Origin: a virus
Strand: one strand, 5' to 3'
Virus genome (UHGV): UHGV-0112814
DNA length: 39,031 nucleotides
In this document: positions 23,939 through 38,723 of the stretch, in pieces
Layout: each line of letters opens with the position of its first letter
Numbering within the stretch: the first letter of the stretch is position 1
The notes under the pieces: generated by a model
Seen by the model: only the letters and a program-made list of their open reading frames with translations
Told to the model about the DNA's origin: nothing
The model's database searches: none
Made by a program: the position numbers and the translations under genes

Positions 23939-24117
23939 CTTGTTTTCCTCGCACGTTCTCTAAGCCACCGGATATCCCACAGGTGAGCCGTGTAGTTGAA
24001 GGTTTTTACGTCAGATTCTTTTGGGATTGGCTTGCGTTTATTTCTGGAGCGTTTCGTTGGAAGGTATTTGCAGTTTTCACAGATGATGTCGGTGATACTT
24101 CGTCGCTGTCGTCTCAT
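23935..24117 (-). CDS. ninE: NinE
   Basis: [52 protein letters not shown] matches lambda NinE. Confidence 0.8.
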
Positions 24118-24644
24118 GCCGCCCTCCTGACGCCCTGCCCGATCGCCATCAATGCCGCTTTGGATACGGTAGTAAACATCCGTCGAGGACTGATGAACGG
24201 TCGCCAAATCAGCAGCATGGAGCCTTTGCTGTTTCCCTTCTTCTCCAGCCCTGTCGATGGTTCGATAAAATTAATCCGTCCATCAGTGATAATGCGAACT
24301 TCGTCGACACTCTCCAGAGCCTTGCTGAACCATCCGACAGACATATCCTCTGGCACAAGCATCACTACCGTCTGTCGCTGTTGTATGCACTGCTCAGCTG
24401 CTTTTTCCACCCACGGCCTGATATTGCTGTACGGTGGGTTATTCCAGATTGCACCGTGACTTACCCACTCAGAATTGAGCGCGTCGTCGGCCTCAGTTAG
24501 CCAGTGAGCGCACAGAGCATTTTTGTCGCTCGCTGCCGAATCCAGCCAGAATCCAAACTCAATATCCAGTGCATCAAAAAGCCAGAGCGGCGTTTGCCAG
24601 CAGTCTCTAACTTCTTTTGGTGTTTCTGATTTATGCTTAATCAT
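24114..24644 (-). CDS. Phage-type DNA N6-adenine methyltransferase (Dam-like, orphan)
   Basis: 176 aa with NPPYS catalytic motif; ATGA-type overlaps with flanking genes. Confidence 0.75.
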
Positions 24645-25168
24645 ACAACCTTCGCATATTGTCCGTGATATTTGTTGATAGCCTCACTGGCAACCAAACA
24701 AGCAAGTTCAAGATCTTCATAGAGCCCAAAATACAACCGGCCAAAATCTGTGCGCACTTGAACGGCCCATTTATTTTTTTGCTTGTTCCATAAAACATTT
24801 TTTATTCCAGAACGGCTATTGCACTTAGTTTTCTGATTTCGGCTGTTTGCTATCCGGCCTGCCTCCCTAAGATTTTTTGGGGAATTGTCCAGCCTGTTTC
24901 CGTTAATATGGTCAATATTTTTCAATGGCATTCTTTTGTTGTGCAGCGCAAAAACAACTACGTGAACAAACATCTGAATGCCTGCAAAACACACCTGTCT
25001 ATACCCAGATCCATTTATCGATGTTTTAATTTCATCTCCTGCCCGGTGGCTGTGGTTGGGGTGTTTTAGCGAGTCCTTTTTGTATCTGACTGTATCTCCG
25101 TCTAAATACAGATAATCCTCAATAAGCCGATACCTATCTGACGCTGGCGTATTTGATTTGATAGTCAT
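24641..25168 (-). CDS. HNH endonuclease (homing-endonuclease-like)
   Basis: IDHINGNRLDNSPKNLR HNH motif; AT-rich relative to neighbours by eye; start at ATG 25168 overlapping the NinB stop. Confidence 0.7.
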   Translation of the reverse strand: MTIKSNTPASDRYRLIEDYLYLDGDTVRYKKDSLKHPNHSHRAGDEIKTSINGSGYRQVCFAGIQMFVHVVVFALHNKRMPLKNIDHINGNRLDNSPKNLREAGRIANSRNQKTKCNSRSGIKNVLWNKQKNKWAVQVRTDFGRLYFGLYEDLELACLVASEAINKYHGQYAKVV

Positions 25169-25605
25169 GCAGCCCGATCTCCCCATCGCGCTTTCCATTC
25201 GAGAGCCAGTCGCGCTTCGTCTGACCACTTAACGCCACGCTCTGTACCGAATGCTTGTATAAGCTCTAATAGCTCCGCAAATTCGCCTACACGCATCCTG
25301 CTGGTTGACTGGCCTATTACCACAAAGCCATTCCCGGCAAGGTTAGGAACAACGTCCTGCTGCTTTAATGCTGCGGTAAACACACACTTCCAGCTTTCTG
25401 CATCCAGCCAACGCCCATGCCATTCAACCTGACGAGAGACGTCACCAAGGCAAGCCCAAAGCTTCCGATTCTGGTCTAAGCTGCGGTTGCGCTCCTGAAT
25501 GATCACTACGATTGGCTTGGTTTGGTCTGGAAGGATTTGCTGTACTGCGTGAATAGCGCTTTGCTGATGTGCCGGAGATCGAATTTCAAAGGTTAGTTTT
25601 TTCAT
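25165..25605 (-). CDS. ninB: NinB recombination protein
   Basis: MKKLTFEIRSPAHQQSAIHAVQQILPD ... matches lambda NinB; start at M7 of the track ORF. Confidence 0.9.
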   Translation of the reverse strand: MKKLTFEIRSPAHQQSAIHAVQQILPDQTKPIVVIIQERNRSLDQNRKLWACLGDVSRQVEWHGRWLDAESWKCVFTAALKQQDVVPNLAGNGFVVIGQSTSRMRVGEFAELLELIQAFGTERGVKWSDEARLALEWKARWGDRAA

Positions 25606-25682
25606 GACTTCCCTCTCCCCCAAATAAAAAGGCCTGCGATTACCAGCAGGCCTGTTACAAGCTCAGTGATGTAGATGGTCAT

Positions 25683-27563
25683 TTAATACTCCGTCACGTT
25701 TTCCTGTCGCCACGCCTCGTCATATTCCGATTTCGGCATATTGGCGATGTAGCTATAAGGCGATCCTGATTCAAGTTGCAGGAACTGGTGCGATTGCTCG
25801 TCAAGGAACAACGGGACACCACCTTCCCAACCTTCGCCGTTACGTTGTTTTTCAAGCATCAAAACAGATGCCGGAGATGCCAGTAGCTGTTCGTCCTTCT
25901 CTGACATCTTTTCACCACTCTGAACTCTCTGTAACGCTCTCTCGCGAGCCTTGTTACGCCAGATGATAAAAAGGTTGTCTGTCAGGTCTGTTATCGCTCC
26001 AGAGCCTTTTACGTCCATTTTCCCGGTTGGTTTTTCTTCGCTATCTCCTTTTCTGGAGTGAGTAACGAGAATGACGTGGGAGTTTGTTTTGTTTTTGAAG
26101 TCACAAATCGAGTCAACAAATGCTTTCTGCCCGTTATAGTCATCGTCACCTATGCCGCATTTCATCAGGCTGTCGATGATGAATAACTGGATGCCGTATC
26201 GGCGGCGAGCGTAGTCGAATATTTCGATCAGCCTGTCGGCTTTCGCCGTTCCAGTCAGGCCAAACACCCAAAATCTTTCGTCATAAAATTTAAATGCAGA
26301 GTCAATTTCCAGCACTGGCGGCATCTTGCAGCACGTCGCCTGACGGGTAAGGCGCTTAAGGAGAATACCAGGCTTCAGCTCAAGTGACGCGATGCACGTC
26401 TTCACACCCTGACGCATTGCCTCAAGTGCCATATGCCCGACAACCTCCGTTTTTCCGTGACCGTTCACACCATTGACCAGCGTCAACTCGGCCTCACGGA
26501 ACTGGAATTTATCTGCCAGAGATTCCCACGGTGGATTAAACAGATACTGCTGCTTGCCGTAGAAAGCGTTGATAGTGTCCTGGTAAAACTCTCGCGCGCT
26601 GTAGAGTTCTTCAGGATCGAAGTAGGATGCCGTGCCGATGTACTGCCAGATTTCATCCTCGGTAACACCGTTCATCAGGCATTCGTTGATGTCTTTGTAC
26701 GGCAGAGTAACAAGACGGCAACGATGTTCACCGAGTCGGCTTGCGATTTCCCTTGCGGCTTCACGACCAACATCATCAACGTCCATCGAGATGAATATTT
26801 CCTCAAACCTGTCGAGGTTGTGATACTCAAACTCAATCCACTGTTGCTTAGCGCCTTTCCCGCCACCAAACGGCACGGATAACGCCGAGATGCCGTATTG
26901 CGCATAGCTCATACAATCAATTTCGCCTTCGCAAAGTACAACCGCCCTCACGCCAGCGTCCAGAGCCTGCCATCCAAACAGACAAGGTTCGCAATCACCT
27001 TCTGCCATAATGACTTTCTTCCCGTCCGGTCGCTCAGTGCTGATTCGCTTGACCTGCAACAACTCACCATCGCGTTTGTACGGAAGCACCAGTGCATCAA
27101 GTTCTCGTTCTCCATTCCACACCTTGCCGCTGACAACCTCGTAGCGCTTTACGACTTCTGGCGATATGCCACGCGATTGCAGGTACTCAAGATGGGATTC
27201 TGTTCTGGTAACGTAGCGGGCGATTTTCTTGCGGTCAGGTCTGGAGAATTTCTTCTCACGTTTGGCATCGAAATGGTGATCGTCATCCTTGATTCCGAGA
27301 AAGGCTTTCGCTTCCTGCATAGCCTGATGCAGGTTAATTCCACGACATGCCATCCACAAATCAAGCATGTCACCGCCGTCTCCCTCAGCGAAATCAGCCC
27401 ATTTTTTCTTGCCGCTAAGGTTGACCTTAAGGCTGTTTCCCTTGTCACCGTTGACGTTACCGGCAACCCACTCATGCCCCTCTTTCTTGCCGTTTGGCAA
27501 CAGGTGCGGAGCCACCCTGTCAACCTGCGCCCAAAGCAGGTCACTGAGTTCACTTGGAGTCAT
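25683..27563 (-). CDS. Bifunctional primase (TOPRIM)/DnaB-like helicase replication protein
   Basis: 626 aa; TOPRIM-like VVLCEGEIDCMSYAQYG segment and Walker A-like VNGVNGHGKTEV segment. Confidence 0.8.
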   Translation of the reverse strand: MTPSELSDLLWAQVDRVAPHLLPNGKKEGHEWVAGNVNGDKGNSLKVNLSGKKKWADFAEGDGGDMLDLWMACRGINLHQAMQEAKAFLGIKDDDHHFDAKREKKFSRPDRKKIARYVTRTESHLEYLQSRGISPEVVKRYEVVSGKVWNGERELDALVLPYKRDGELLQVKRISTERPDGKKVIMAEGDCEPCLFGWQALDAGVRAVVLCEGEIDCMSYAQYGISALSVPFGGGKGAKQQWIEFEYHNLDRFEEIFISMDVDDVGREAAREIASRLGEHRCRLVTLPYKDINECLMNGVTEDEIWQYIGTASYFDPEELYSAREFYQDTINAFYGKQQYLFNPPWESLADKFQFREAELTLVNGVNGHGKTEVVGHMALEAMRQGVKTCIASLELKPGILLKRLTRQATCCKMPPVLEIDSAFKFYDERFWVFGLTGTAKADRLIEIFDYARRRYGIQLFIIDSLMKCGIGDDDYNGQKAFVDSICDFKNKTNSHVILVTHSRKGDSEEKPTGKMDVKGSGAITDLTDNLFIIWRNKARERALQRVQSGEKMSEKDEQLLASPASVLMLEKQRNGEGWEGGVPLFLDEQSHQFLQLESGSPYSYIANMPKSEYDEAWRQENVTEY

Positions 27564-27667
27564 GATTCCCTCAGATTGAGATTTTTAAACCAGAAATCGA
27601 CAAACGAAATACTTAACCAGCCGTGGTTATAACCAGCGACCAGTAGCGATTTGATTTTTGATTTCAT
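27560..27667 (-). CDS. Small ORF (35 aa) translationally coupled between the O-like gene and the primase-helicase gene
   Basis: Own translation MKSKIKSLLVAGYNHGWLSISFVDFWFKNLNLRES; its ATG lies 3 nt after the O-like stop and its stop overlaps the primase ATG. Confidence 0.3.
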   Translation of the reverse strand: MKSKIKSLLVAGYNHGWLSISFVDFWFKNLNLRES

Positions 27668-27670
27668 GGT

Positions 27671-28531
27671 TCACCTGTCGAAAAACACGTAGCCAGTTTT
27701 CGATACGGTGATTGCGGATGATGGTTTGGATTGTGGTTGAATAGTTTCTGGCTTCTCGTCGTTCCAGCGCTGACCGTTCAGGTAGCTCGATGGTAACAAC
27801 CTGTCGAATCCGAACTGCTTACCATTCCTGCATGCGATGTCTTCTGCCAGCATCGTGGCAAACTCGCTTGCCGTACCCCTGGTAGTTTTACGCCATTCCC
27901 TGAACTGTGTTCTGAATGCCGAAGCTGCGTTTTTCTTCCCGGCTTTCCGCATGCCTGCACACCAGAATATTTCCTCGAATGCCTTGTCGGTTTCTTCGTG
28001 ACGGTCAGGTGATTTTTCACACTCCGTCCGAACACTTTCGGACATAGTGTTTTTATTATTTCTTTTTTCTTTTGTAATAGTTTCTTTTGTGTGTCCCTGT
28101 TTTGGTGACAGCGCTGTCACCGTTTTGGTGACACTTTTTGTCACCAATGCAGTGACATTATCACCAGAGTAGTGACACCCTTCGATTTGCCATTCTTCGA
28201 TGTTCTTGTTAGGCCCGATTTGCTGGCCTTCGCGAAGGATAACCTTCATCGCGATAAGCTCATTCTTGGCCTTGTTTACCTTCTGTCTTGGCAGCCTGGT
28301 AATTTGAGCTAACTGACTATCAGAAATGCGATCCATCTTTTTACCGTAGCCGTATGTTTTACGGCATATGGCGTGGGCAACCTTGCTCTGATTTTTCGTT
28401 AAATCTGCGCCGATAAGCTCTTCATACAGGGCATTTGCAAGACGGGTATAACCATCTTCAACTTCTGCCACACGACGCTCCACAGGCCGTTGTGAAGGCC
28501 TTAAATGTGTTACGGTTGCAAGATTACTCAT
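27671..28531 (-). CDS. Replication initiator with lambda O-like N-terminal domain
   Basis: N-terminal [37 protein letters not shown] resembles the phage O N-terminal domain; ori iterons lie inside the gene. Confidence 0.75.
28100..28180. repeat. Candidate replication origin iterons (GTGACA/TGTCAC core repeated about 6 times in both orientations) next to an AT-rich stretch at 28050..28095
   Basis: tttggtgacag / ctgtcaccg / ttttggtgacac / tttttgtcacc / agtgacatt / agtgacaccc inside the O-like gene, as lambda ori lies inside O. Confidence 0.55.
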
Positions 28532-28679
28532 GACCTTTCTCCTTCTGCATCAGCTTCACTTTTTCCAACTCAGCCCGGAATCGACCAGGCTGCTTGAAGC
28601 TGGACAGGAAGCGATCACGTAGTATGTGTTTGTGAATTTTGTCTGGTAAGGACTGAGTTGTTTTGTCATAATGACTCCT

Positions 28680-28757
28680 GTTGATAGATCCAGTAATGAC
28701 CTCAGAATTCCATCTGGATTTGTTCAGAACGCTCGGTTGCCGCCGGGCGTTTTTTAT
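28680..28757 (+). ncRNA. oop: oop antisense RNA (lambda-like), overlapping the 3' end of cII
   Basis: gttgatagatccagtaatgacctcagaa(t)tccatctggatttgttcagaacgctcggttgccgccgggcgttttttatt is near-identical to lambda oop, including its terminator. Confidence 0.75.
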
Positions 28758-28995
28758 TGGTGAGAATCGAAGCAACTTGTCGTGCCAATCGAGCCATGTC
28801 GTCGTCAACGACCCCCCATTCAAGAACAGCAAGCAGCATTGAGAACTTTGGAATCCAATCCCTCTTCCACCTGCTGATCTGCGACTTATCAACTCCCACA
28901 GCTTCCGCTGTCTTCTCAGTTCCAAGCATTGCGATTTTGTTAAGCAACGCACTCTCGATTCGTAGAGCCTCGTTGCGTTTGTTTGCACGAACCAT
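28702..28995 (-). CDS. cII: CII transcriptional activator (lambda CII)
   Basis: [62 protein letters not shown] ... is essentially lambda CII. Confidence 0.95.
28973..28986 (+). promoter_or_regulatory. pRE -35 region with CII-binding TTGC-N6-TTGC direct repeat
   Basis: ttgcgtttgtttgc inside the 5' end of cII, oriented toward cI as in lambda. Confidence 0.6.
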
Positions 28996-29074
28996 ATGTA
29001 AGTATTTCCTTAGATAACAATTGATTGAATGTATGCAAATAAATGCATACACCATAGGTGTGGTTTAATTTGAT

Positions 29075-29106
29075 GCCCTTTTTCAGGGCTGGAATGTGTA
29101 AGAGCG
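29075..29106 (-). promoter_or_regulatory. nutR (boxA cgctctta at 29099..29106; boxB gccctgaaaaagggc at 29075..29089), followed by tR1-like sequence
   Basis: Minus strand reads cgctcttacacattccagccctgaaaaagggcatcaaattaaacc..., matching lambda nutR. Confidence 0.85.
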
Positions 29107-29114
29107 TTGATAAC

Positions 29115-29345
29115 TTAAGCAGCCATTAATTCAGGCCAGATGCTTTCCCAATCAACCGGATGAAGGTCTTTGCGAGTCACTTCACCATTGCTGAACTTCT
29201 CAATCAGAACACAAAGTGCTGCGCCCAATTCATGATTACGGCTAAGTGCTTTCCTCAAATAGCCGATAGAAGTTCCGCACTTGGTGGCAAATTCTCTCTG
29301 CTCTTCCAGTGAAAGGGAGTTCAGATACAAGCGGAGTTCTTCCAT
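29115..29345 (-). CDS. cro: Cro-like repressor (non-lambda specificity)
   Basis: 76-aa ORF divergent from cI across the operator region, RBS aaggag; HTH-like segment TKCGTSIGYLRKAL. Confidence 0.7.
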   Translation of the reverse strand: MEELRLYLNSLSLEEQREFATKCGTSIGYLRKALSRNHELGAALCVLIEKFSNGEVTRKDLHPVDWESIWPELMAA

Positions 29346-29377
29346 TTGCTATCTCCTTCCCGTTGTTGAATAAGGTG

Positions 29378-29406
29378 AGTTTACCTGCAGGTAAAAAACA
29401 AATCAA
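29378..29406 (-). promoter_or_regulatory. Putative pR promoter (-35 ttgatt, -10 taaact) overlapping operators
   Basis: Minus strand: ttgatt-17 nt-taaact upstream of the cro RBS. Confidence 0.5.
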
Positions 29407-29433
29407 TACCCACAGGTTATTTACCGATAGGTA
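29382..29433. promoter_or_regulatory. oR: three operator sites (29382..29393 perfect TACCTGCAGGTA; 29407..29418 and 29422..29433 variants)
   Basis: 12-bp palindrome and two degenerate copies in the cro-cI intergenic region. Confidence 0.6.
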
Positions 29434-29453
29434 ATCAAAGATAGAATTAAATC

Positions 29454-30140
29454 ATGGATAAATACGAACAAAGACGACTAAGGCTGATAGAGATAAGAGA
29501 CCGATTCTGTAATGGAAAGGCCTCAGAGTTGGCTCGTCGAATAGAAAGGGAACCATCATACGTTTCCAGAATGCTGTATCCGGAAGGAAAAAGCGGAAAA
29601 AAACGCATTGCTGACGATATGATGGAACTAATTGAAAAATCTTTTAATCTCCCACGCGGATGGATGGACATGCTTGCAGATAGCAAAGTTGGATCTGCAG
29701 ACCATCTTGAGTTTGCGGGTAACGTTCGTGCGGGTTTTGTTCCGGTAATTGGTGAAGCCGTTTTGGGAGTTGATGGCTCAGTGGATATGATTGAATTCAG
29801 ATCCGGTTGGTTAAGCATCTACAGTGGCGATAAAGATGCTTACGGTCTGAAGGTTAAGGGTGACAGCATGTGGCCAAGGATTCAGTCAGGAGAATATGTT
29901 GTTATTGAACCAAATACGCCAGTACATCCAGGTGATGAAGTCTTTGTAAGGACCAAAGATGGTCATAACATGATAAAGATCATGAACAAAACAAGAGACG
30001 GAGACTATCAGTTTAGTAGTATAAACAGCGATCACCGTCCAATCACTCTTCCTGTTGAAGAAGTTGATAAAATGCATTTTGTTTCAGCTATTGTGAAACA
30101 CACTAGGTACGTAGACCAGGACGATCTGCCAAAATTTTGA
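29454..30140 (+). CDS. cI: CI-type prophage repressor with C-terminal S24 (LexA-like) autopeptidase domain
   Basis: 228 aa; C-terminal GDSMWPRI ... GDEVFVR ... IKI is a LexA/S24 Ser-Lys dyad pattern; divergent from cro. Confidence 0.9.
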   Translation: MDKYEQRRLRLIEIRDRFCNGKASELARRIEREPSYVSRMLYPEGKSGKKRIADDMMELIEKSFNLPRGWMDMLADSKVGSADHLEFAGNVRAGFVPVIGEAVLGVDGSVDMIEFRSGWLSIYSGDKDAYGLKVKGDSMWPRIQSGEYVVIEPNTPVHPGDEVFVRTKDGHNMIKIMNKTRDGDYQFSSINSDHRPITLPVEEVDKMHFVSAIVKHTRYVDQDDLPKF

Positions 30141-30451
30141 GGATAAAGCAGCAAATGTTTATACCAGGTATAGTGGTCGCTGTTGTAATCATCTGCTTCA
30201 TATGGGCAAAGTTATCTCCTGTAAGCTCTAAGCATACAGCTGAACTCATGAAGAAGAAGCATCTTATACATGAGGCAGAAACGATAATTAAGAAGTTCAA
30301 AGGCATGTCATATGACGACATGTCATCAGATCAGATTGCTATGTATAAATGCGCCATTGAGCGTCTTGACCACTTAAACGGACTCAAACCCAAACACACC
30401 CCGGTAGAATCAAAATTGCCGCAATGGCCAAGCAATCCAAATAGCTTCTGA
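30137..30451 (+). CDS. Small membrane-anchored protein co-transcribed with cI (candidate lysogen-expressed exclusion function)
   Basis: 104 aa; N-terminal TM helix MFIPGIVVAVVIICFIWA; start overlaps the cI stop; followed by a strong terminator. Confidence 0.6.
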   Translation: MRIKQQMFIPGIVVAVVIICFIWAKLSPVSSKHTAELMKKKHLIHEAETIIKKFKGMSYDDMSSDQIAMYKCAIERLDHLNGLKPKHTPVESKLPQWPSNPNSF

Positions 30452-30462
30452 CATCTCCTTTC

Positions 30463-30486
30463 AGCCCGCAAAGCGGGCTTTTTTAT
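30463..30486 (+). terminator. Intrinsic terminator ending the cI operon
   Basis: agcccgc-aaa-gcgggct perfect stem followed by ttttttata. Confidence 0.75.
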
Positions 30487-30548
30487 ATCAATCCAAAAAA
30501 TTAATTACCTGAAAATTCAAACAGGTAAACTCTCACACCAATTTTATT

Positions 30549-30585
30549 TACCTGCAGGTATAGACAACAGTTTTACCTGCAGGTA
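30549..30585. promoter_or_regulatory. oL: two perfect TACCTGCAGGTA operators (30549..30560, 30574..30585) overlapping pL
   Basis: Same 12-bp palindrome as in oR, centre-to-centre spacing 25 bp. Confidence 0.6.
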
Positions 30586-30589
30586 TATT
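30561..30589 (+). promoter_or_regulatory. pL promoter (-35 tagaca, -10 tatatt), predicted +1 near 30597
   Basis: 17-bp spacing; downstream leader atcagcaggacgcac... matches the lambda pL transcript start. Confidence 0.55.
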
Positions 30590-30630
30590 TTAAGCCATCA
30601 GCAGGACGCACTAACCACCATGAAGGTGAT

Positions 30631-30660
30631 GCTCTTAAAAATTAAGCCCTGAAGAAGGGC
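30631..30660 (+). promoter_or_regulatory. nutL (boxA gctcttaaa, boxB gccctgaagaagggc at 30646..30660)
   Basis: gctcttaaaaattaagccctgaagaagggcagca matches lambda nutL. Confidence 0.85.
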
Positions 30661-30858
30661 AGCATTCAAAGCAGAAGTCTTTTGGATTGGATGAATGCGC
30701 AGGCTGATGCTCGACCAATGTATAAACAGCGCTCATGGCAAGCAGTAACCAATCTGCGCCTCAAGACAGCGTCACTGGTAGTGCGGGCGCTCTAACCAGT
30801 AAGCCGGAGTTCAGCGCCGGCCATCCAATCACCAAAGCTAACTGACAGGAGAATCCAG

Positions 30859-31185
30859 ATGGATGCACAAACACGCCGCCGCGAACGTCGCGCAGAGAAA
30901 CAGGCTCAATGGAAAGCAGCAAATCCCCTGTTGGTTGGGGTAAGCGCAAAACCAGTTAACCGCCCTATTCTCTCGCTGAATCGCAAACCGAAATCACGAG
31001 TAGAAAGCGCACTGAATCCGATAGACCTTACGGTGCTGGCTGAATACCACGAACAGATTGAAAGCAACCTGCAACGTATTGAGCGCAAGAATCAGCGCAC
31101 ATGGTACAGCAAGCCACGCAGTGAAATGGGTGTGACTTGTGTTGGTCGCCATAAAACGAAGGGCAAATCCATCGCATTAATCTGA
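30859..31185 (+). CDS. N: Antiterminator N (lambda N)
   Basis: MDAQTRRRERRAEKQAQWKAANPLLVGVSAKPVNRPILSLNRKPKSRVESALNPIDLTVLAEYH ... is lambda N, including the Arg-rich boxB-binding motif. Confidence 0.95.
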   Translation: MDAQTRRRERRAEKQAQWKAANPLLVGVSAKPVNRPILSLNRKPKSRVESALNPIDLTVLAEYHEQIESNLQRIERKNQRTWYSKPRSEMGVTCVGRHKTKGKSIALI

Positions 31186-31193
31186 GGTGGCCC

Positions 31194-31295
31194 ATGAAGA
31201 ACAGCATCAAGTGCCCGGTATGCGGTCGTGACTTCGATCCACGCACTCCGGTCTGCCACATCAGCAAGTATCACCAGTCAGCGAAGAACTGCTAG
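31194..31295 (+). CDS. Small Cys-rich (zinc-ribbon-like) ORF just downstream of N
   Basis: Own translation MKNSIKCPVCGRDFDPRTPVCHISKYHQSAKNC; RBS gaggtgg; below track cutoff. Confidence 0.3.
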   Translation: MKNSIKCPVCGRDFDPRTPVCHISKYHQSAKNC

Positions 31296-31354
31296 CTGGA
31301 GAAGATACGCGATGCCCGGCGGCAATATTTCAAAGTAACAGCGAGTGAGGTTCG

Positions 31355-31696
31355 GTGATGGAAAATAAAACGGCTAACGGGATGTACGTACTGCGTGGTG
31401 AGCTGAAAAAGGGACTGATAGCGGAGCTGGTAAAGGCATACGACCAGCTGACTCAGGAGTCAGAAAAATTAAAGATCCTCGGACTCAGGTATAACACCCC
31501 TCGACGCATTGTTTATGGCTTTATGTATGAGGTTGCAGCATTAACCGTCAAGGAAATTATGTTTAAAACTGAGGGTGGCTTTTACATCCCACAGGATGAC
31601 TTCGAATCGAGCGACGATATCGATTCATTAGCCAAAGAGATCATCGATGTAATTGACTGTAATGGCGCATTCCTTGAGCGCCTTCTTAAGGAGTAG
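31355..31696 (+). CDS. Hypothetical early-left protein (acidic C-terminus)
   Basis: 113-aa ORF with no recognisable motif; first sizeable gene after N. Confidence 0.55.
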   Translation: MMENKTANGMYVLRGELKKGLIAELVKAYDQLTQESEKLKILGLRYNTPRRIVYGFMYEVAALTVKEIMFKTEGGFYIPQDDFESSDDIDSLAKEIIDVIDCNGAFLERLLKE

Positions 31697-31697
31697 C

Positions 31698-31836
31698 CAT
31701 GAAAAAACTGTATGAAAAACTCCCGTTCGTAGTGCAGGGGGTCATTTTGGGTCTGCTTATCACTGCGGCCATTCTTCTGTCTACCCCGCCAGTCGTCATG
31801 TTTCTTCGTTGGTGGTTCAGAGTTTGGGGTGTCTGA
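31698..31836 (+). CDS. Small hydrophobic membrane peptide (46 aa), translationally coupled to the upstream gene
   Basis: Own translation MKKLYEKLPFVVQGVILGLLITAAILLSTPPVVMFLRWWFRVWGV; strong aaggag RBS; ATG 2 nt after the upstream stop. Confidence 0.4.
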
Positions 31837-31911
31837 TCGGCGCAAGCATTACGCACAGAACGAATCGAGCGGGTCGAGTGGCCTGCGGTGAATAAACAAA
31901 GGGGTGAGGGT

Positions 31912-32094
31912 ATGGAAAATTTGGACAATGAACTGAAAAGAGTAGTTCAGGAACTGGCCAATGAAGAAGGCATCAGTTTTGCCGATGCCGTGGACGTTTC
32001 GATTAAGACGCTTCGTTACGAAATTCAGCACAGAAAGTCTTTTAATGGGTCGCCTGACCCCGATGGAGGCGCATCAGGAGTAGAGGTACGCTGA
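31912..32094 (+). CDS. Hypothetical small protein
   Basis: ORF-track 31888..32094; internal ATG at 31912 (MENLDNELK) preferred. Confidence 0.4.
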   Translation: MENLDNELKRVVQELANEEGISFADAVDVSIKTLRYEIQHRKSFNGSPDPDGGASGVEVR

Positions 32095-32233
32095 CCAAAT
32101 ATCGAAGCGGCAAACAAAAATCGCTGGGGTTTGACGATTGGTGTAACTGGATAGATACGGAACTTGGTGGGATAAATAACAGGTAACTTAAGCGTATTTA
32201 CTTTCGCAGCAAACCACTTATTTGAGGTGATAT

Positions 32234-32683
32234 ATGGAAGAACAAGCAAACAAGATTCTCGTAGAACTACTGCAAAAAGCCAGTAATGGAATAGACGCGG
32301 CTGTTTCATTCAGCCAGGCACAGATTCCTGATGTTGTTCATCAGTTGCTGCTATGGAATATGGTTGACAGTCTGATTAAAACATTAATGGCCATTCTAAC
32401 AATCCCACTGGTTTTCTGGTTTATGAAGAAGCAGTGCCAAAGAGTTGAGACAGGTAAAATCGGTGATGAAGGATATTCATGGGAGAAAGGAAATCCCAAA
32501 TACATGCCGACAATGGTTTGGGATAGCAAAGGTGATATTAATCTTCTTATCATGCCATTGGTTGTAGTTTTGACTCTGTGGGGGATTTTTATTATTGGTG
32601 TAGTAACCAATATGACTTGGTTAAAAATTTGGCTGGCCCCAAAGCTTTACCTTATCGAATATGCAGCATCATTGGTTAAGTAA
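32234..32683 (+). CDS. Two-TM membrane protein, moron-like (candidate superinfection exclusion/abortive infection)
   Basis: 149 aa with two hydrophobic segments (LIKTLMAILTIPLVFWFM; INLLIMPLVVVLTLWGIFIIGVV); preceded by a 139-bp gap with a possible promoter and followed by a terminator. Confidence 0.6.
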   Translation: MEEQANKILVELLQKASNGIDAAVSFSQAQIPDVVHQLLLWNMVDSLIKTLMAILTIPLVFWFMKKQCQRVETGKIGDEGYSWEKGNPKYMPTMVWDSKGDINLLIMPLVVVLTLWGIFIIGVVTNMTWLKIWLAPKLYLIEYAASLVK

Positions 32684-32688
32684 TTTCA

Positions 32689-32712
32689 GGCCGCATAGTC
32701 GGCCTTTATTTT
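32689..32712 (+). terminator. Intrinsic terminator after the membrane-protein moron
   Basis: ggccg-catagt-cggcc stem followed by tttatttt. Confidence 0.5.
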
Positions 32713-32729
32713 GGGCATAAACAACAGAG

Positions 32730-33026
32730 GTGAATATGAAATATACGCCAGGTCCATGGAAGTGGTGGACAAGTAACAGCTTCCTGCGATTAAGCAGCCA
32801 GGCTACAGGTAAAGATGGTGGAGTAATTGACTCTTATGTGATGCGTGATGGTCATCCTTCACTGCGCGTTAGCAAAGAAGATATGGCTCTAATAGCTGCA
32901 GCTCCAGATTTACTCGAAGCTCTGCAAGATTTGCTTATTCGTGTCGCTGATGATGAAGAGTATGGGCCTGAACATGCAATTACTCGGGCTCGCGCAGCAA
33001 TCAGTAAGGCTCTTGGGGAGGAGTGA
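32730..33026 (+). CDS. Hypothetical protein
   Basis: 98-aa ORF; stop overlaps the next start. Confidence 0.5.
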   Translation: MNMKYTPGPWKWWTSNSFLRLSSQATGKDGGVIDSYVMRDGHPSLRVSKEDMALIAAAPDLLEALQDLLIRVADDEEYGPEHAITRARAAISKALGEE

Positions 33027-37708: not shown

Positions 37709-38455
37709 ATGAGCACTATTACCAAAGAATTAACCAAAGAGCAGTTACAGCAAATTATCGAAACTGACCACGTTCAATGCGGTGAGGCTTCGGCGCTGGC
37801 GCGTATCGCGCTGGCATCGCTCGAAGCGGAGCCTGTGGCGTGGGCGCACAGATTAATCAACAAGCGTAACGGAGTCGTTCACCCTTGGGTTTACGGTAGC
37901 GCAGAGGCGTGTCCAAGCGAGGGGGATATCTTCAATATTGAGGTAATGCCGCTCTACACCGCCCCGCCAGCGCCGGTATCTGTGCCCGCTACGATGGAAA
38001 TTGATGATGACTTTGACAGCGCGTTTGAACACGGAAAAGCTGTCGGCTGGAACGCCTATCGCGCCGCCATGCTTCAGGCCGAACCTGTAAGTAATAGTGA
38101 TGAGTTACCGCTGGACTATCTGCAAGGTCACAAAGACGGCCTTGAATGGGCTGCACAATTGGCAGAAGCCAATCATCCGCAAACAGGTGACTGGTTGTAC
38201 GACGACCAAATCGATCTTGCCAGGGCGATTCGCAAAGGTCCGGATATGCCTACTGTTCAGGGTGGCAACTCTCCGGTGATTCCAGATGGTTGGGTGATGG
38301 TGCCGGTTGAGCCTACGATAGCCATTCTAGACGAATTCGATTCGATTATTGATTACGGCGCTGAGGATTCTAAGGATGCGTGGAGTCGTCTTCTGGCAGC
38401 CGCTTGGATTAAATCGCTGCCAGCAGCGCCGCGGCAGGAGGTTAACCGTGGCTAA
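37709..38455 (+). CDS. Hypothetical protein
   Basis: 248-aa ORF, acidic, Pro/Ala-rich linker. Confidence 0.55.
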   Translation: MSTITKELTKEQLQQIIETDHVQCGEASALARIALASLEAEPVAWAHRLINKRNGVVHPWVYGSAEACPSEGDIFNIEVMPLYTAPPAPVSVPATMEIDDDFDSAFEHGKAVGWNAYRAAMLQAEPVSNSDELPLDYLQGHKDGLEWAAQLAEANHPQTGDWLYDDQIDLARAIRKGPDMPTVQGGNSPVIPDGWVMVPVEPTIAILDEFDSIIDYGAEDSKDAWSRLLAAAWIKSLPAAPRQEVNRG

Positions 38456-38555
38456 CCTGCAACTTGCCGTCAAAGGTGAATAACAATCCTCGCACTCGCG
38501 GGGATTTCTTTTATCTGAACTCGCTACGGCGAGTTTTGCTTTATGGAGATGATAA

Positions 38556-38723
38556 ATGCACTTCCGAGTCACAGGTGAATGGAATGGAGAACCATTCAAC
38601 AGAGTTATCGAAGCAGAGGACATCAACGACTGCTATGACCACTGGATGATATGGGCGCAGATAGCACATGCAGACGTAACCAATATTCGAATTGAAGAAC
38701 TGAAAGAACACCAAGCCGCCTGA
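38556..38723 (+). CDS. Small hypothetical protein (55 aa) ending inside a terminator hairpin
   Basis: Own translation MHFRVTGEWNGEPFNRVIEAEDINDCYDHWMIWAQIAHADVTNIRIEELKEHQAA. Confidence 0.3.
   Translation: MHFRVTGEWNGEPFNRVIEAEDINDCYDHWMIWAQIAHADVTNIRIEELKEHQAA

Follow-up and report, generated by a model that had tools for sequence, protein, structure and literature searches.

In the Salmonella phage ES18, genes 59, 60 and 61 encode, in that order, a replication initiator, a 35-residue protein (gp60) and a primase-helicase (gp61), and the same gene order recurs in phage epsilon34 (genes 50-52), in phage g341c and in others; the ES18 record places the origin inside gene 59 ('rep_origin, similar to lambda ori') and describes the downstream enzyme as a 'putative primase/helicase; similar to phage T7 gene 4'. 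In T7 itself the primase-helicase acts at a transcription-opened origin, and gp4 needs a Cys4 zinc ribbon for template recognition. The ori-O-P region of lambda, which follows cII in the operon read from pR, deploys an O initiator with four in-gene, dyad-symmetric iterons of about 19 bp and an adjoining AT-rich region, and depends upon the hijacking of host DnaB. Genes 18 and 12 of P22 combine an O-like initiator containing internal iterons with a helicase that the phage encodes itself, in place of a loader (PMC8022706); that helicase (gp12) is a DnaB homologue devoid of a primase domain (PMC10307801).

The window analysed here, the whole 39,031-nucleotide stretch of virus genome UHGV-0112814, exhibits the ES18 gene order between positions 25683 and 28531, with an ES18-like initiator C-terminal domain followed by homologues of gp60 and gp61. 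Very probably a P22-like lambdoid coliphage here carries an intact replication module of the ES18/mEp043 type, installed in place of lambda O-P-ren, a reading based on the observed architecture, iterons, near-identity to functional phages, covariation, linkage and recombination boundaries. Modules of this type are already known, documented in the literature, common and annotated in other phages, and constitute an ordinary alternative replication cassette of lambda-like phages; the region is of interest chiefly as a clean textbook example and not as a discovery. The initial annotation had identified a non-lambda module in a lambda-type context: the replacement of O, P and ren was confirmed, with the correction that the type is a catalogued one (ES18 gp59-gp61) and not unusual. 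A literature search located no experiments on this module type.

Coliphage mEp043, which is plaque-forming, and Shigella phage Sf101 carry practically the same module (99.4% and 99.3% DNA identity, respectively, over all 2849 bp), the initiator proteins of mEp043 and the window being identical; only the flanks differ, those of mEp043 comprising a non-lambda cII region and an intact small upstream ORF, and lacking an HNH gene between ninB and dam. Identity with ES18 is 88% at the DNA level from 25679 to 28104, i.e. from the AT-rich region to the stop codon, whereas the N-terminal domain of gp59 is of the lambda type (93.5% identical to lambda O, and accompanied by lambda iterons) and that of the window is 49% identical to it, with iterons of the form TGTCACC-N5-GGTGACA.

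Layout of the module and its lambda-like flanks

All three module genes lie on the minus strand and are full length: the initiator (27671-28531, 286 aa), a 35-aa ORF (27560-27667, sequence MKSKIKSLLVAGYNHGWLSISFVDFWFKNLNLRES) homologous to ES18 gp60, and a T7-gp4/Twinkle-like primase-helicase (25683-27563, 626 aa). The open reading frame list reproduced exactly the coordinates and the three-gene arrangement initially proposed. Upstream of the initiator ATG stands a strong Shine-Dalgarno sequence, AAGGAG. The genes are tightly packed, the 35-aa ORF starting 3 nt past the initiator stop and overlapping the primase-helicase start at its own end (ATGA); translation of this ORF, initially described as coupled, probably is so.

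On the left, positions 28662..29106 (minus strand) correspond to lambda 38249-38693 with 98.9% identity and span rutA-nutR-rutB and cII together with the oop region and O up to its eighth nucleotide; on the right, positions 25165..25682 (minus strand) correspond to lambda 40567-41084 with 94.8% identity and hold the final 4 nt of ren, an intergenic segment and ninB, for which a NinB Pfam match provided confirmation. Both boundaries fall at gene edges, the left at 28662, 8 nt into O, and the right 1 nt past the primase-helicase stop codon. No lambda homology was found within 25683-28661, and no P-type DnaB-loader gene was found downstream of the initiator. The recombination boundaries are accordingly as sharp as had been claimed, lambda identity stopping at 28662 and resuming at 25682, and the reported local identity of cII, oop, nutR and N to lambda was likewise upheld (98.9% across nutR-cII-oop; N 93%); a further 95.6% identity was recorded in the nutL region. 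Rfam, scanned over 24000-33000 at E<=0.1, yielded no match, and hence neither an oop nor a nut family from its curated set; confirmation of oop and nutR came instead from the lambda alignment, from an exact match to the nutR boxB (29075-29089) and from a terminator scan that placed the oop terminator at 28726-28753.

Between cII and the initiator lies a small ORF (28524..28669, minus strand) of the P22 orf48/DUF2740 type (phrog_1913), the stop codon of which normally overlaps the initiator start. In the window its frame is shifted by a deletion of 1 nt, as seen by comparison with the copies of mEp043, 720R6, SEN22 and PhiR12_2_star.

The two halves of the initiator

The initiator consists of an N-terminal lambda-O-type DNA-binding domain (aa 1-~155), a linker encoded by the AT-rich region, and a non-lambda C-terminal domain (aa ~157-286). 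Phage_rep_O (PF04492), a winged-helix origin-binding domain, matched only aa 20-114 (coding region 28190..28474, minus strand; E=1.2e-37, 128.8 bits against a cut-off of 28.7), TIGR01610 phage_O_Nterm also matched (1.7e-30, 105 bits against a cut-off of 45.5), and the 49% identity to lambda O was confined to aa 1-157. P22 gp18, which resembles the window system in logic, is 46% identical to the same domain. This specificity type occurs with at least 99% identity in 13 phage records, the next relative being that of phiEt88 at 55%.

By way of contrast, the C-terminal domain (aa 157-286; coding region 27674..28063, minus strand) is unrelated to that of lambda O. It matched phrog_33384 (1.7e-88), and none of its PHROG families (33384, 270, 9327 and 9474) recurs among those assigned to the C-terminus of lambda O (2357, 391 and 2514), so that the earlier assignment of O-likeness to the N-terminal domain only was fully substantiated. 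Past aa 157, BLASTP against lambda O yielded nothing significant, and a lambda-type P-binding C-terminal domain is thus missing from this initiator. Searches of the C-terminal domain against Pfam at E<=10 and of the entire initiator against PDB sequences at E<=0.1 gave no match. Co-inheritance with the primase-helicase suggests that this domain may serve as a docking domain for that enzyme, and it is on co-inheritance that the predicted contact rests.

Iterons and the putative origin

Within the region encoding the N-terminal half are four 19-bp dyad-symmetric iterons, TGTCACC-N5-GGTGACA (28092..28177; individually 28092-28110, 28115-28133, 28139-28157 and 28159-28177). Their start-to-start spacing in the direction of the gene, 20, 24 and 23 bp, is that of lambda ITN1-4 (lambda positions 39034, 39054, 39078 and 39101), and they align column by column with those of lambda and ES18, although the lambda half-sites are TCCCTC/GAGGGA where those of the window are TGTCACC/GGTGACA. 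Six exact GTGACA/TGTCAC hexamers are present at 28105-28177, against 15 across the entire 39-kb window; when up to two mismatches were allowed, these four iterons were the only matches in the window, a count reached in none of 100 shuffles. Among 56 IMG/VR loci only 3 of the 76 iteron positions were variable, and the window iterons represent the majority form.

After the iterons comes a 47-bp AT-rich region (28045..28091; 81% AT compared with 53% overall) that is nearly identical to the AT-rich region of the lambda ori and is a putative DNA-unwinding element, and directly after that an inverted repeat (28019..28050) with 14-nt arms, 86% complementary, and a 4-nt spacer. ES18 shares the inverted repeat, which is therefore assigned to the part of the module that goes with the C-terminal domain.

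The iteron sequence was found to covary with the initiator N-terminal domain across the lambda/ES18, window, phiEt88 and Min27 types. The phiEt88 domain (52-55% identical to that of the window) is accompanied by TGTTACC-N5-GGTAACA iterons, in which both half-sites carry the same one-base substitution in mirror image, and Min27-type initiators combine an unrelated HTH N-terminal domain with GGGGCAGGAGCTGCCCC repeats at the same place. This covariation across four specificity types supports the prediction that the initiator binds these iterons and that the origin fires here. With respect to the initial annotation, the AT-rich stretch proved to be as described, and an origin inside the gene was borne out at the level of sequence by the lambda-equivalent position and spacing of the repeats followed by a near-lambda AT-rich block; the 'about six' GTGACA-core iterons are real as repeats but were miscounted, there being four iterons comprising eight half-sites, six of them perfect. 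Loss of the iterons from homologues, which that annotation would have taken as refutation, was not observed: homologues retain iterons that change with the N-terminal domain.

The primase-helicase

As judged from its sequence, the 626-aa protein combines in one chain a TOPRIM primase and an SF4 (DnaB/T7-gp4-type) helicase, and the earlier description of it in these terms was confirmed both by its Pfam domains and by its best solved relatives, T7 gp4 (4e-24) and Twinkle (1.8e-13). Toprim_2 matched aa 209-296 (3e-12; nt 26676-26939), while the SF4 RecA-type helicase region (aa ~357-594; nt 25782-26495) was covered by AAA_25 at aa 357-507 (27.5 bits, cut-off 27) and by a DnaB_C match at aa 497-594 that lay under its cut-off (23.8 bits, cut-off 27); the protein also matched phrog_239 (1e-171). 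Catalytic motifs shared with T7 gene 4 and mitochondrial Twinkle are conserved: the acidic metal ligands of the TOPRIM domain are retained (EGEID, DVDD and KDINE, compared with EGEID, DMDE and KDANE in T7 gp4), and the Walker A (GHGKT), Walker B (IIDS) and H-motif (THS) sequences align with those of T7 gp4. The arginine-finger position, however, which is Arg in T7 gp4 (DLRGSGA), is Lys in the window enzyme (DVKGSGA).

Unlike T7 gp4, the enzyme has no cysteines in aa 1-72, and the N-terminal Cys4 zinc ribbon is missing; because of this, primase activity is not assured. It is further distinguished from T7 gp4 in that it is predicted to act downstream of a dedicated iteron-binding initiator, and from the P22 enzyme in that a gp4-type primase-helicase is not homologous to gp12 (PMC10307801). 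Residues 26-143 matched positions 27-155 of a dnaG model, corresponding to the DnaG N-terminus (9e-10), whereas Pfam gave no match to aa 1-204 at E<=10.

Linkage of the initiator C-terminal domain, the 35-aa ORF and the primase-helicase

The three elements that define the ES18-type order travel together. In IMG/VR loci selected by their primase-helicase, the 35-aa ORF was present in 80 of 80, and the initiator C-terminal domain lay upstream in all 79 of those with upstream DNA, whatever the N-terminal domain. The 35-aa ORF (phrog_21848, 4e-26) also occurs in 39 phage records, and each of the 30 that were listed carries the primase-helicase. The Min27 allele, 71% identical, retains the same frame, start and stop, and differs by four synonymous changes across the AGYNHGWLS core.

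Alternative readings

The frameshifted ORF just upstream of the initiator could be taken to mark the module as the inactive remnant of a defective prophage, which is nevertheless very improbable given three full-length ORFs, an initiator identical to that of mEp043, module DNA 99.4% identical to that of viable phages and iterons of the majority form. Slightly less probable still is the proposition that the GTGACA repeats are a mere by-product of a repetitive peptide, the true origin lying elsewhere and being recognised, for example, directly by the primase-helicase, in the manner of the alpha protein of satellite phage P4. The repeats do lie within coding sequence and encode a VT(K/A)-rich peptide; every repeat unit is, however, a DNA palindrome, which repetition of a peptide does not require, and in number, position and 20/24/23 spacing the units correspond to the lambda iterons, with the AT-rich block following as in lambda. 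Moreover, the repeat sequence switches with the type of N-terminal domain while the C-terminal domain and helicase remain constant, and Pfam detected no extra DNA-binding domain past the helicase.

A vestigial primase half, comparable to that of metazoan Twinkle, would leave the enzyme as a self-loading helicase only, with priming by host DnaG or by transcription. The loss of all four zinc-ribbon cysteines, the blank Pfam result over aa 1-204 and the significance of Twinkle as a relative are each compatible with such an outcome, which is considered unlikely: the metal-binding residues of the TOPRIM domain (E in EGEID, DxD and D in KDIN), which are not known to be conserved in metazoan Twinkle, are retained here as in T7 gp4, the DnaG model is still matched, and the full-length architecture is kept with 88-100% identity across many phages.

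Proposed course of initiation

On the preferred reading of an intact module, iteron binding, unwinding, contact between the C-terminal domain and the helicase, primase activity and independence of host factors are predicted by analogy with lambda O/P and T7 gp4. Following derepression, transcription from pR, antiterminated by N at the lambda-identical nutR, would lead to expression of the operon. The lambda-O-type N-terminal domain of the initiator would then bind the four iterons within its own gene, and thereby destabilise the adjoining 47-bp AT-rich element, whereupon the non-lambda C-terminal domain would recruit the hexameric T7-gp4-like primase-helicase of the phage and not a P-DnaB complex, possibly aided by the co-inherited 35-aa protein. 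As the enzyme would both unwind and prime, host DnaB, DnaC and DnaG should all be unnecessary for replication, as should the DnaK/DnaJ/GrpE remodelling imposed by lambda P. A more specific version, in which the 35-aa protein is a micro-adaptor joining the C-terminal domain to the zinc-ribbon-less primase-helicase, giving loader-free, chaperone-free and host-DnaB/DnaC/DnaG-independent initiation with the first primer site set by the initiator and not by a zinc finger, is offered as a rather doubtful conjecture.

Domain exchange and distribution

PhiR12_2_star combines a window-type N-terminal domain and iterons with the C-terminal domain, P and ren of lambda. All four N/C combinations are consequently represented in nature, by lambda, ES18, PhiR12_2_star and the window/mEp043, with crossovers located in the common AT-rich spacer. 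This two-by-two set of recombinants portrays the lambdoid initiator as two exchangeable halves, the N-terminal domain travelling with the iterons and the C-terminal domain with its helicase or loader partner, and marks the conserved AT-rich spacer as a likely unwinding element and recombination joint. A frame difference in the Min27 'O' was considered as a sign that the C-terminal domain is dispensable, and rejected: IMG/VR loci carry the same HTH N-terminal domain fused in frame to the C-terminal domain, and the Min27 record therefore differs by a 1-nt indel.

Of 5426 complete E. coli genomes, 298 (~5%) were found to carry the module, and its carriers include some Stx2 phages. By analogy with lambda O/P and T7 gp4, phages and prophages so equipped probably replicate without host DnaB, DnaC or DnaG, which bears upon the prediction of host-factor dependence and the interpretation of Stx-phage induction. 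Assignment of the module to one of the 'Eru' non-lambdoid replication types of Stx phages was rejected: Eru1 consists of a DEAH helicase alongside a distinct Toprim protein of 323 aa, and the remaining types differ as well.

Organisation of the replication module

ORF calls placed a 286-aa initiator (27671-28531), a 35-aa ORF (27560-27667) and a 626-aa primase-helicase (25683-27563), all on the minus strand, at exactly the positions claimed in the initial annotation. The 35-aa ORF lay between the two larger genes as described there and is probably translationally coupled: it begins 3 nt past the initiator stop, and its end overlaps the start codon of the gene that follows (ATGA). Likeness of the initiator to lambda O was, as claimed, confined to its N-terminal part, Phage_rep_O (Pfam) covering only residues 20-114 (E = 1.2e-37), with phage_O_Nterm (NCBIfam) recognised at the same terminus. 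The proposed fusion of a TOPRIM primase to a DnaB-type helicase was supported by the domains that Pfam found in the 626-aa protein, Toprim_2 (209-296), AAA_25 (357-507) and DnaB_C (497-594), together with a sub-threshold DnaG match (NCBIfam) at residues 26-143; the nearest solved structures were the T7 gp4 primase-helicase (4e-24) and Twinkle (1.8e-13).

Iterons and AT-rich region

The initial annotation envisaged about six GTGACA-core iterons and an AT-rich stretch, of which the latter was confirmed and the former count revised to four. Six of the 15 exact GTGACA/TGTCAC hexamers in the whole 39-kb window fell within 28105-28177, and proved to be half-sites pairing into four 19-bp units of the form TGTCACC-N5-GGTGACA (28159-28177, 28139-28157, 28115-28133 and 28092-28110). 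These carried 0-2 mismatches, every other site in the window having at least three, and the observed number was reached in 0 of 100 shuffles. Their start-to-start spacing in the direction of the gene (20, 24 and 23 bp) was identical to that of lambda ITN1-4 (39034, 39054, 39078, 39101), and DNA alignment matched the four units column for column with the iterons of lambda and ES18. Directly downstream lay a 47-bp stretch of 81% AT (28045-28091; ACACAAAAGAAACTATTACAAAAGAAAAAAGAAA), almost the same as the AT-rich sequence of lambda, followed by an inverted repeat with 14-nt arms (28019-28050).

Co-inheritance of initiator domains with iterons and downstream partners

As a general rule, an O-type protein binds the iterons that lie within its own gene (PMC8022706). 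Across the initiators compared, the N-domain (residues 1 to ~155) and the iterons travel together. ES18 gp59 combines a lambda-type N-domain (93.5% identical to lambda O) and lambda iterons with the C-domain (residues ~157-286) of the window; Erwinia phage phiEt88, with an N-domain 52-55% identical, carries TGTTACC-N5-GGTAACA repeats, in which the same base of the window iteron is changed symmetrically in both half-sites; and Min27-type initiators, with an unrelated HTH N-domain, carry GGGGCAGGAGCTGCCCC repeats at the same position. Iteron variants occurred at only 3 of 76 positions in 56 IMG/VR loci whose N-domain is of the window type, a figure that adds little because those loci are all ~99% identical. 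Within the Min27-type HTH initiators, the number of a 21-bp GGGGCAGGAGCTGCCC repeat varied, giving one to ~five GGAGAA(R/L) peptide units (IMG/VR loci L011, L027, L029, L039, L044, L066 and others); these differences constitute iteron copy-number variation among otherwise near-identical prophages.

Comparison of loci likewise indicated that the C-domain and its downstream partner travel together. The C-domain (phrog_33384) had no PHROG family in common with, and no BLASTP-detectable similarity to, the lambda O C-terminus, and lay upstream of the primase-helicase in all 79 IMG/VR loci having upstream DNA (57 with the window-type N-domain and 22 of HTH type, 18 with full and four with short upstream DNA). 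In PhiR12_2_star (PV340551, 3501-5391) the N-domain and iterons of the window (98.7% over 159 aa) are joined to a C-domain of lambda type, and P and ren come next. This phage is a natural reciprocal recombinant, fused in the AT-rich spacer, and would provide an ideal isogenic reference for dependence on host factors. With ES18, PhiR12_2_star, lambda and window types all found, all four N/C combinations are thus natural, the junction in each falling in the shared AT-rich spacer.

The 35-aa ORF was present in 80 of 80 loci and in 39 phage records, each of the 30 listed being a primase-helicase carrier. In an allele of 71% identity the frame, start and stop were kept, and the AGYNHGWLS core showed four synonymous substitutions. 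The ORF probably encodes a real protein.

Lambda homology and genome setting

BLASTN comparison with lambda 34000-44000 matched window 28662-29106 to lambda 38249-38693 at 98.9% identity (rutA/nutR/rutB, cII, the oop region and the first 8 nt of O) and window 25165-25682 to lambda 40567-41084 at 94.8% (the last 4 nt of ren plus ninB), while no lambda homology was found within 25683-28661. O-P-ren has thus been replaced precisely, with boundaries at gene edges that are as sharp as the initial annotation stated. The lambda identity in places that it claimed for cII, oop, nutR and N also stood: the nutR boxB (29075-29089) was an exact match, the oop segment, with its plus-strand terminator hairpin (28726-28753), differed by one base, N (30859-31185, plus strand) was 93% identical, and the nutL region was 95.6% identical, with the nutL boxB variant of lambda at 30646-30660. 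The immunity region (cI, cro) was not of lambda type.

A short conserved junction, ACTGGATC(A/T)ATC(A/C)ACAGGAGT(A/C)ATTATG(A/C)C, was noted at 28674-28700 and at the same site in compared loci L001, L002, L005, L006 and L007 (PhiR12_2_star). It precedes the first post-cII gene in lambda, mEp043, ES18, SEN22, 720R6 and PhiR12_2_star, and is kept even between unrelated flanks. The Shine-Dalgarno sequence and start codon are part of it, as is the point where lambda homology ends, and it resembles a linker between modules that favours recombination. For the lambda oop promoter, the -35 region would fall outside this boundary, where the DNA is non-lambda.

Taken as a whole, the window is a coliphage or prophage of mosaic, P22-like/lambdoid make-up. 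The late region (1-24000) is P22-like (portal, terminase, DNA-transfer/ejection proteins, tailspike), with best matches to the virion modules of CUS-3, 720R6, Sf101, Kapi1, phiKp_30 and phiv205-1. The early region matches mEp043 and is inverted relative to the lambda map, the cI-like repressor (29454-30140) lying on the plus strand, and cro, cII, the replication genes, ninB and the remaining early genes on the minus strand. The window thereby joins a lambda-like nutR-cII-oop/N segment to immunity and replication genes of the mEp043 type and to a virion of the P22 type. Between ninB and a Dam methyltransferase gene, a 195-aa HNH_3 endonuclease gene (24641-25228, minus strand; Pfam 6e-10) lies in a low-GC patch (0.39-0.42) and is missing in mEp043 (homology gap 24606-25142); it is probably a mobile homing-endonuclease insertion.

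Proposed mechanism and alternatives

The module most likely couples lambda-like origin recognition to a T7-like replisome core. Transcription from pR would express the replication operon; the initiator N-domain would bind the four iterons and distort the AT-rich element; the C-domain, perhaps together with the 35-aa protein, would recruit the primase-helicase of the phage; and this enzyme would unwind and prime with no need of host DnaB, DnaC or DnaG, or of P-release chaperones. What is seen directly of this scheme is sequence anatomy and covariation, and we infer binding, unwinding, recruitment, primase activity and host-factor independence from the biology of lambda O/P and T7 gp4.

With no cysteine in the first 72 residues of the primase-helicase, its gp4/DnaG zinc ribbon is degenerate. 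The chief doubt within the scheme is that a zinc-less primase domain might be inactive, which is considered unlikely because the TOPRIM ligands are conserved. Residue alignment located the TOPRIM acidic residues, Walker A (GHGKT), Walker B and the H-motif, while the arginine finger of T7 gp4 was replaced by Lys. Alternative readings of the GTGACA repeats as mere coding repeats, or of the module as a dead relic, are poorly supported.

Relatives and occurrence

The 2849-bp module shared 99.4% identity with mEp043, 99.3% with Shigella phage Sf101, 98% with 720R6 and 91% with Salmonella phage SEN22. For the part that starts at the AT-rich region, identity was 96-98% with several Stx2 phages (24B, Min27, F403 and others) and 88% with the Salmonella phages ES18, epsilon34 and g341c. 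It is a near-identical copy of the mEp043/Sf101 module and a domain-shuffled sibling of ES18 gp59-61. In the ES18 record, gene 59 is already described as lambda-gpO-like, with a 'rep_origin ... similar to lambda ori', gene 60 is the 35-aa ORF, and gene 61 bears the label 'putative primase/helicase; similar to phage T7 gene 4'. As the module was also present in 298 of the 5426 complete E. coli genomes, with 292 relatives of the primase-helicase among IMG/VR viral contigs, it is a known, common replication-module type. The initial observation was confirmed and its interpretation supported, save for the iteron count and for the type being already catalogued.

Between cII and the initiator, mEp043, 720R6, SEN22 and PhiR12_2_star carry a 48-aa gene whose stop overlaps the initiator start. 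The window equivalent (28556-28669) has a 1-nt deletion near 28641 (CCAGGACAAA to CCA-GACAAA), which leaves an out-of-frame product of 37 aa; the deletion may be a genuine mutation or may reflect a sequencing error at a run of GG. RefSeq calls this family 'tail protein', apparently a misannotation.

The Stx2-phage primase-helicase homologue (phage Min27, L004 2827-5409; others) contains a ~342-aa insertion inside the Walker A loop (GHGK/ACPLNEP...VATHN/TEVVGH in Min27), identified as an intein by its Hint and LAGLIDADG homing-endonuclease domains (Pfam); the window enzyme lacks the intein. Frame breaks are also present in the Min27 record, both in O and close to the 3' end of P.
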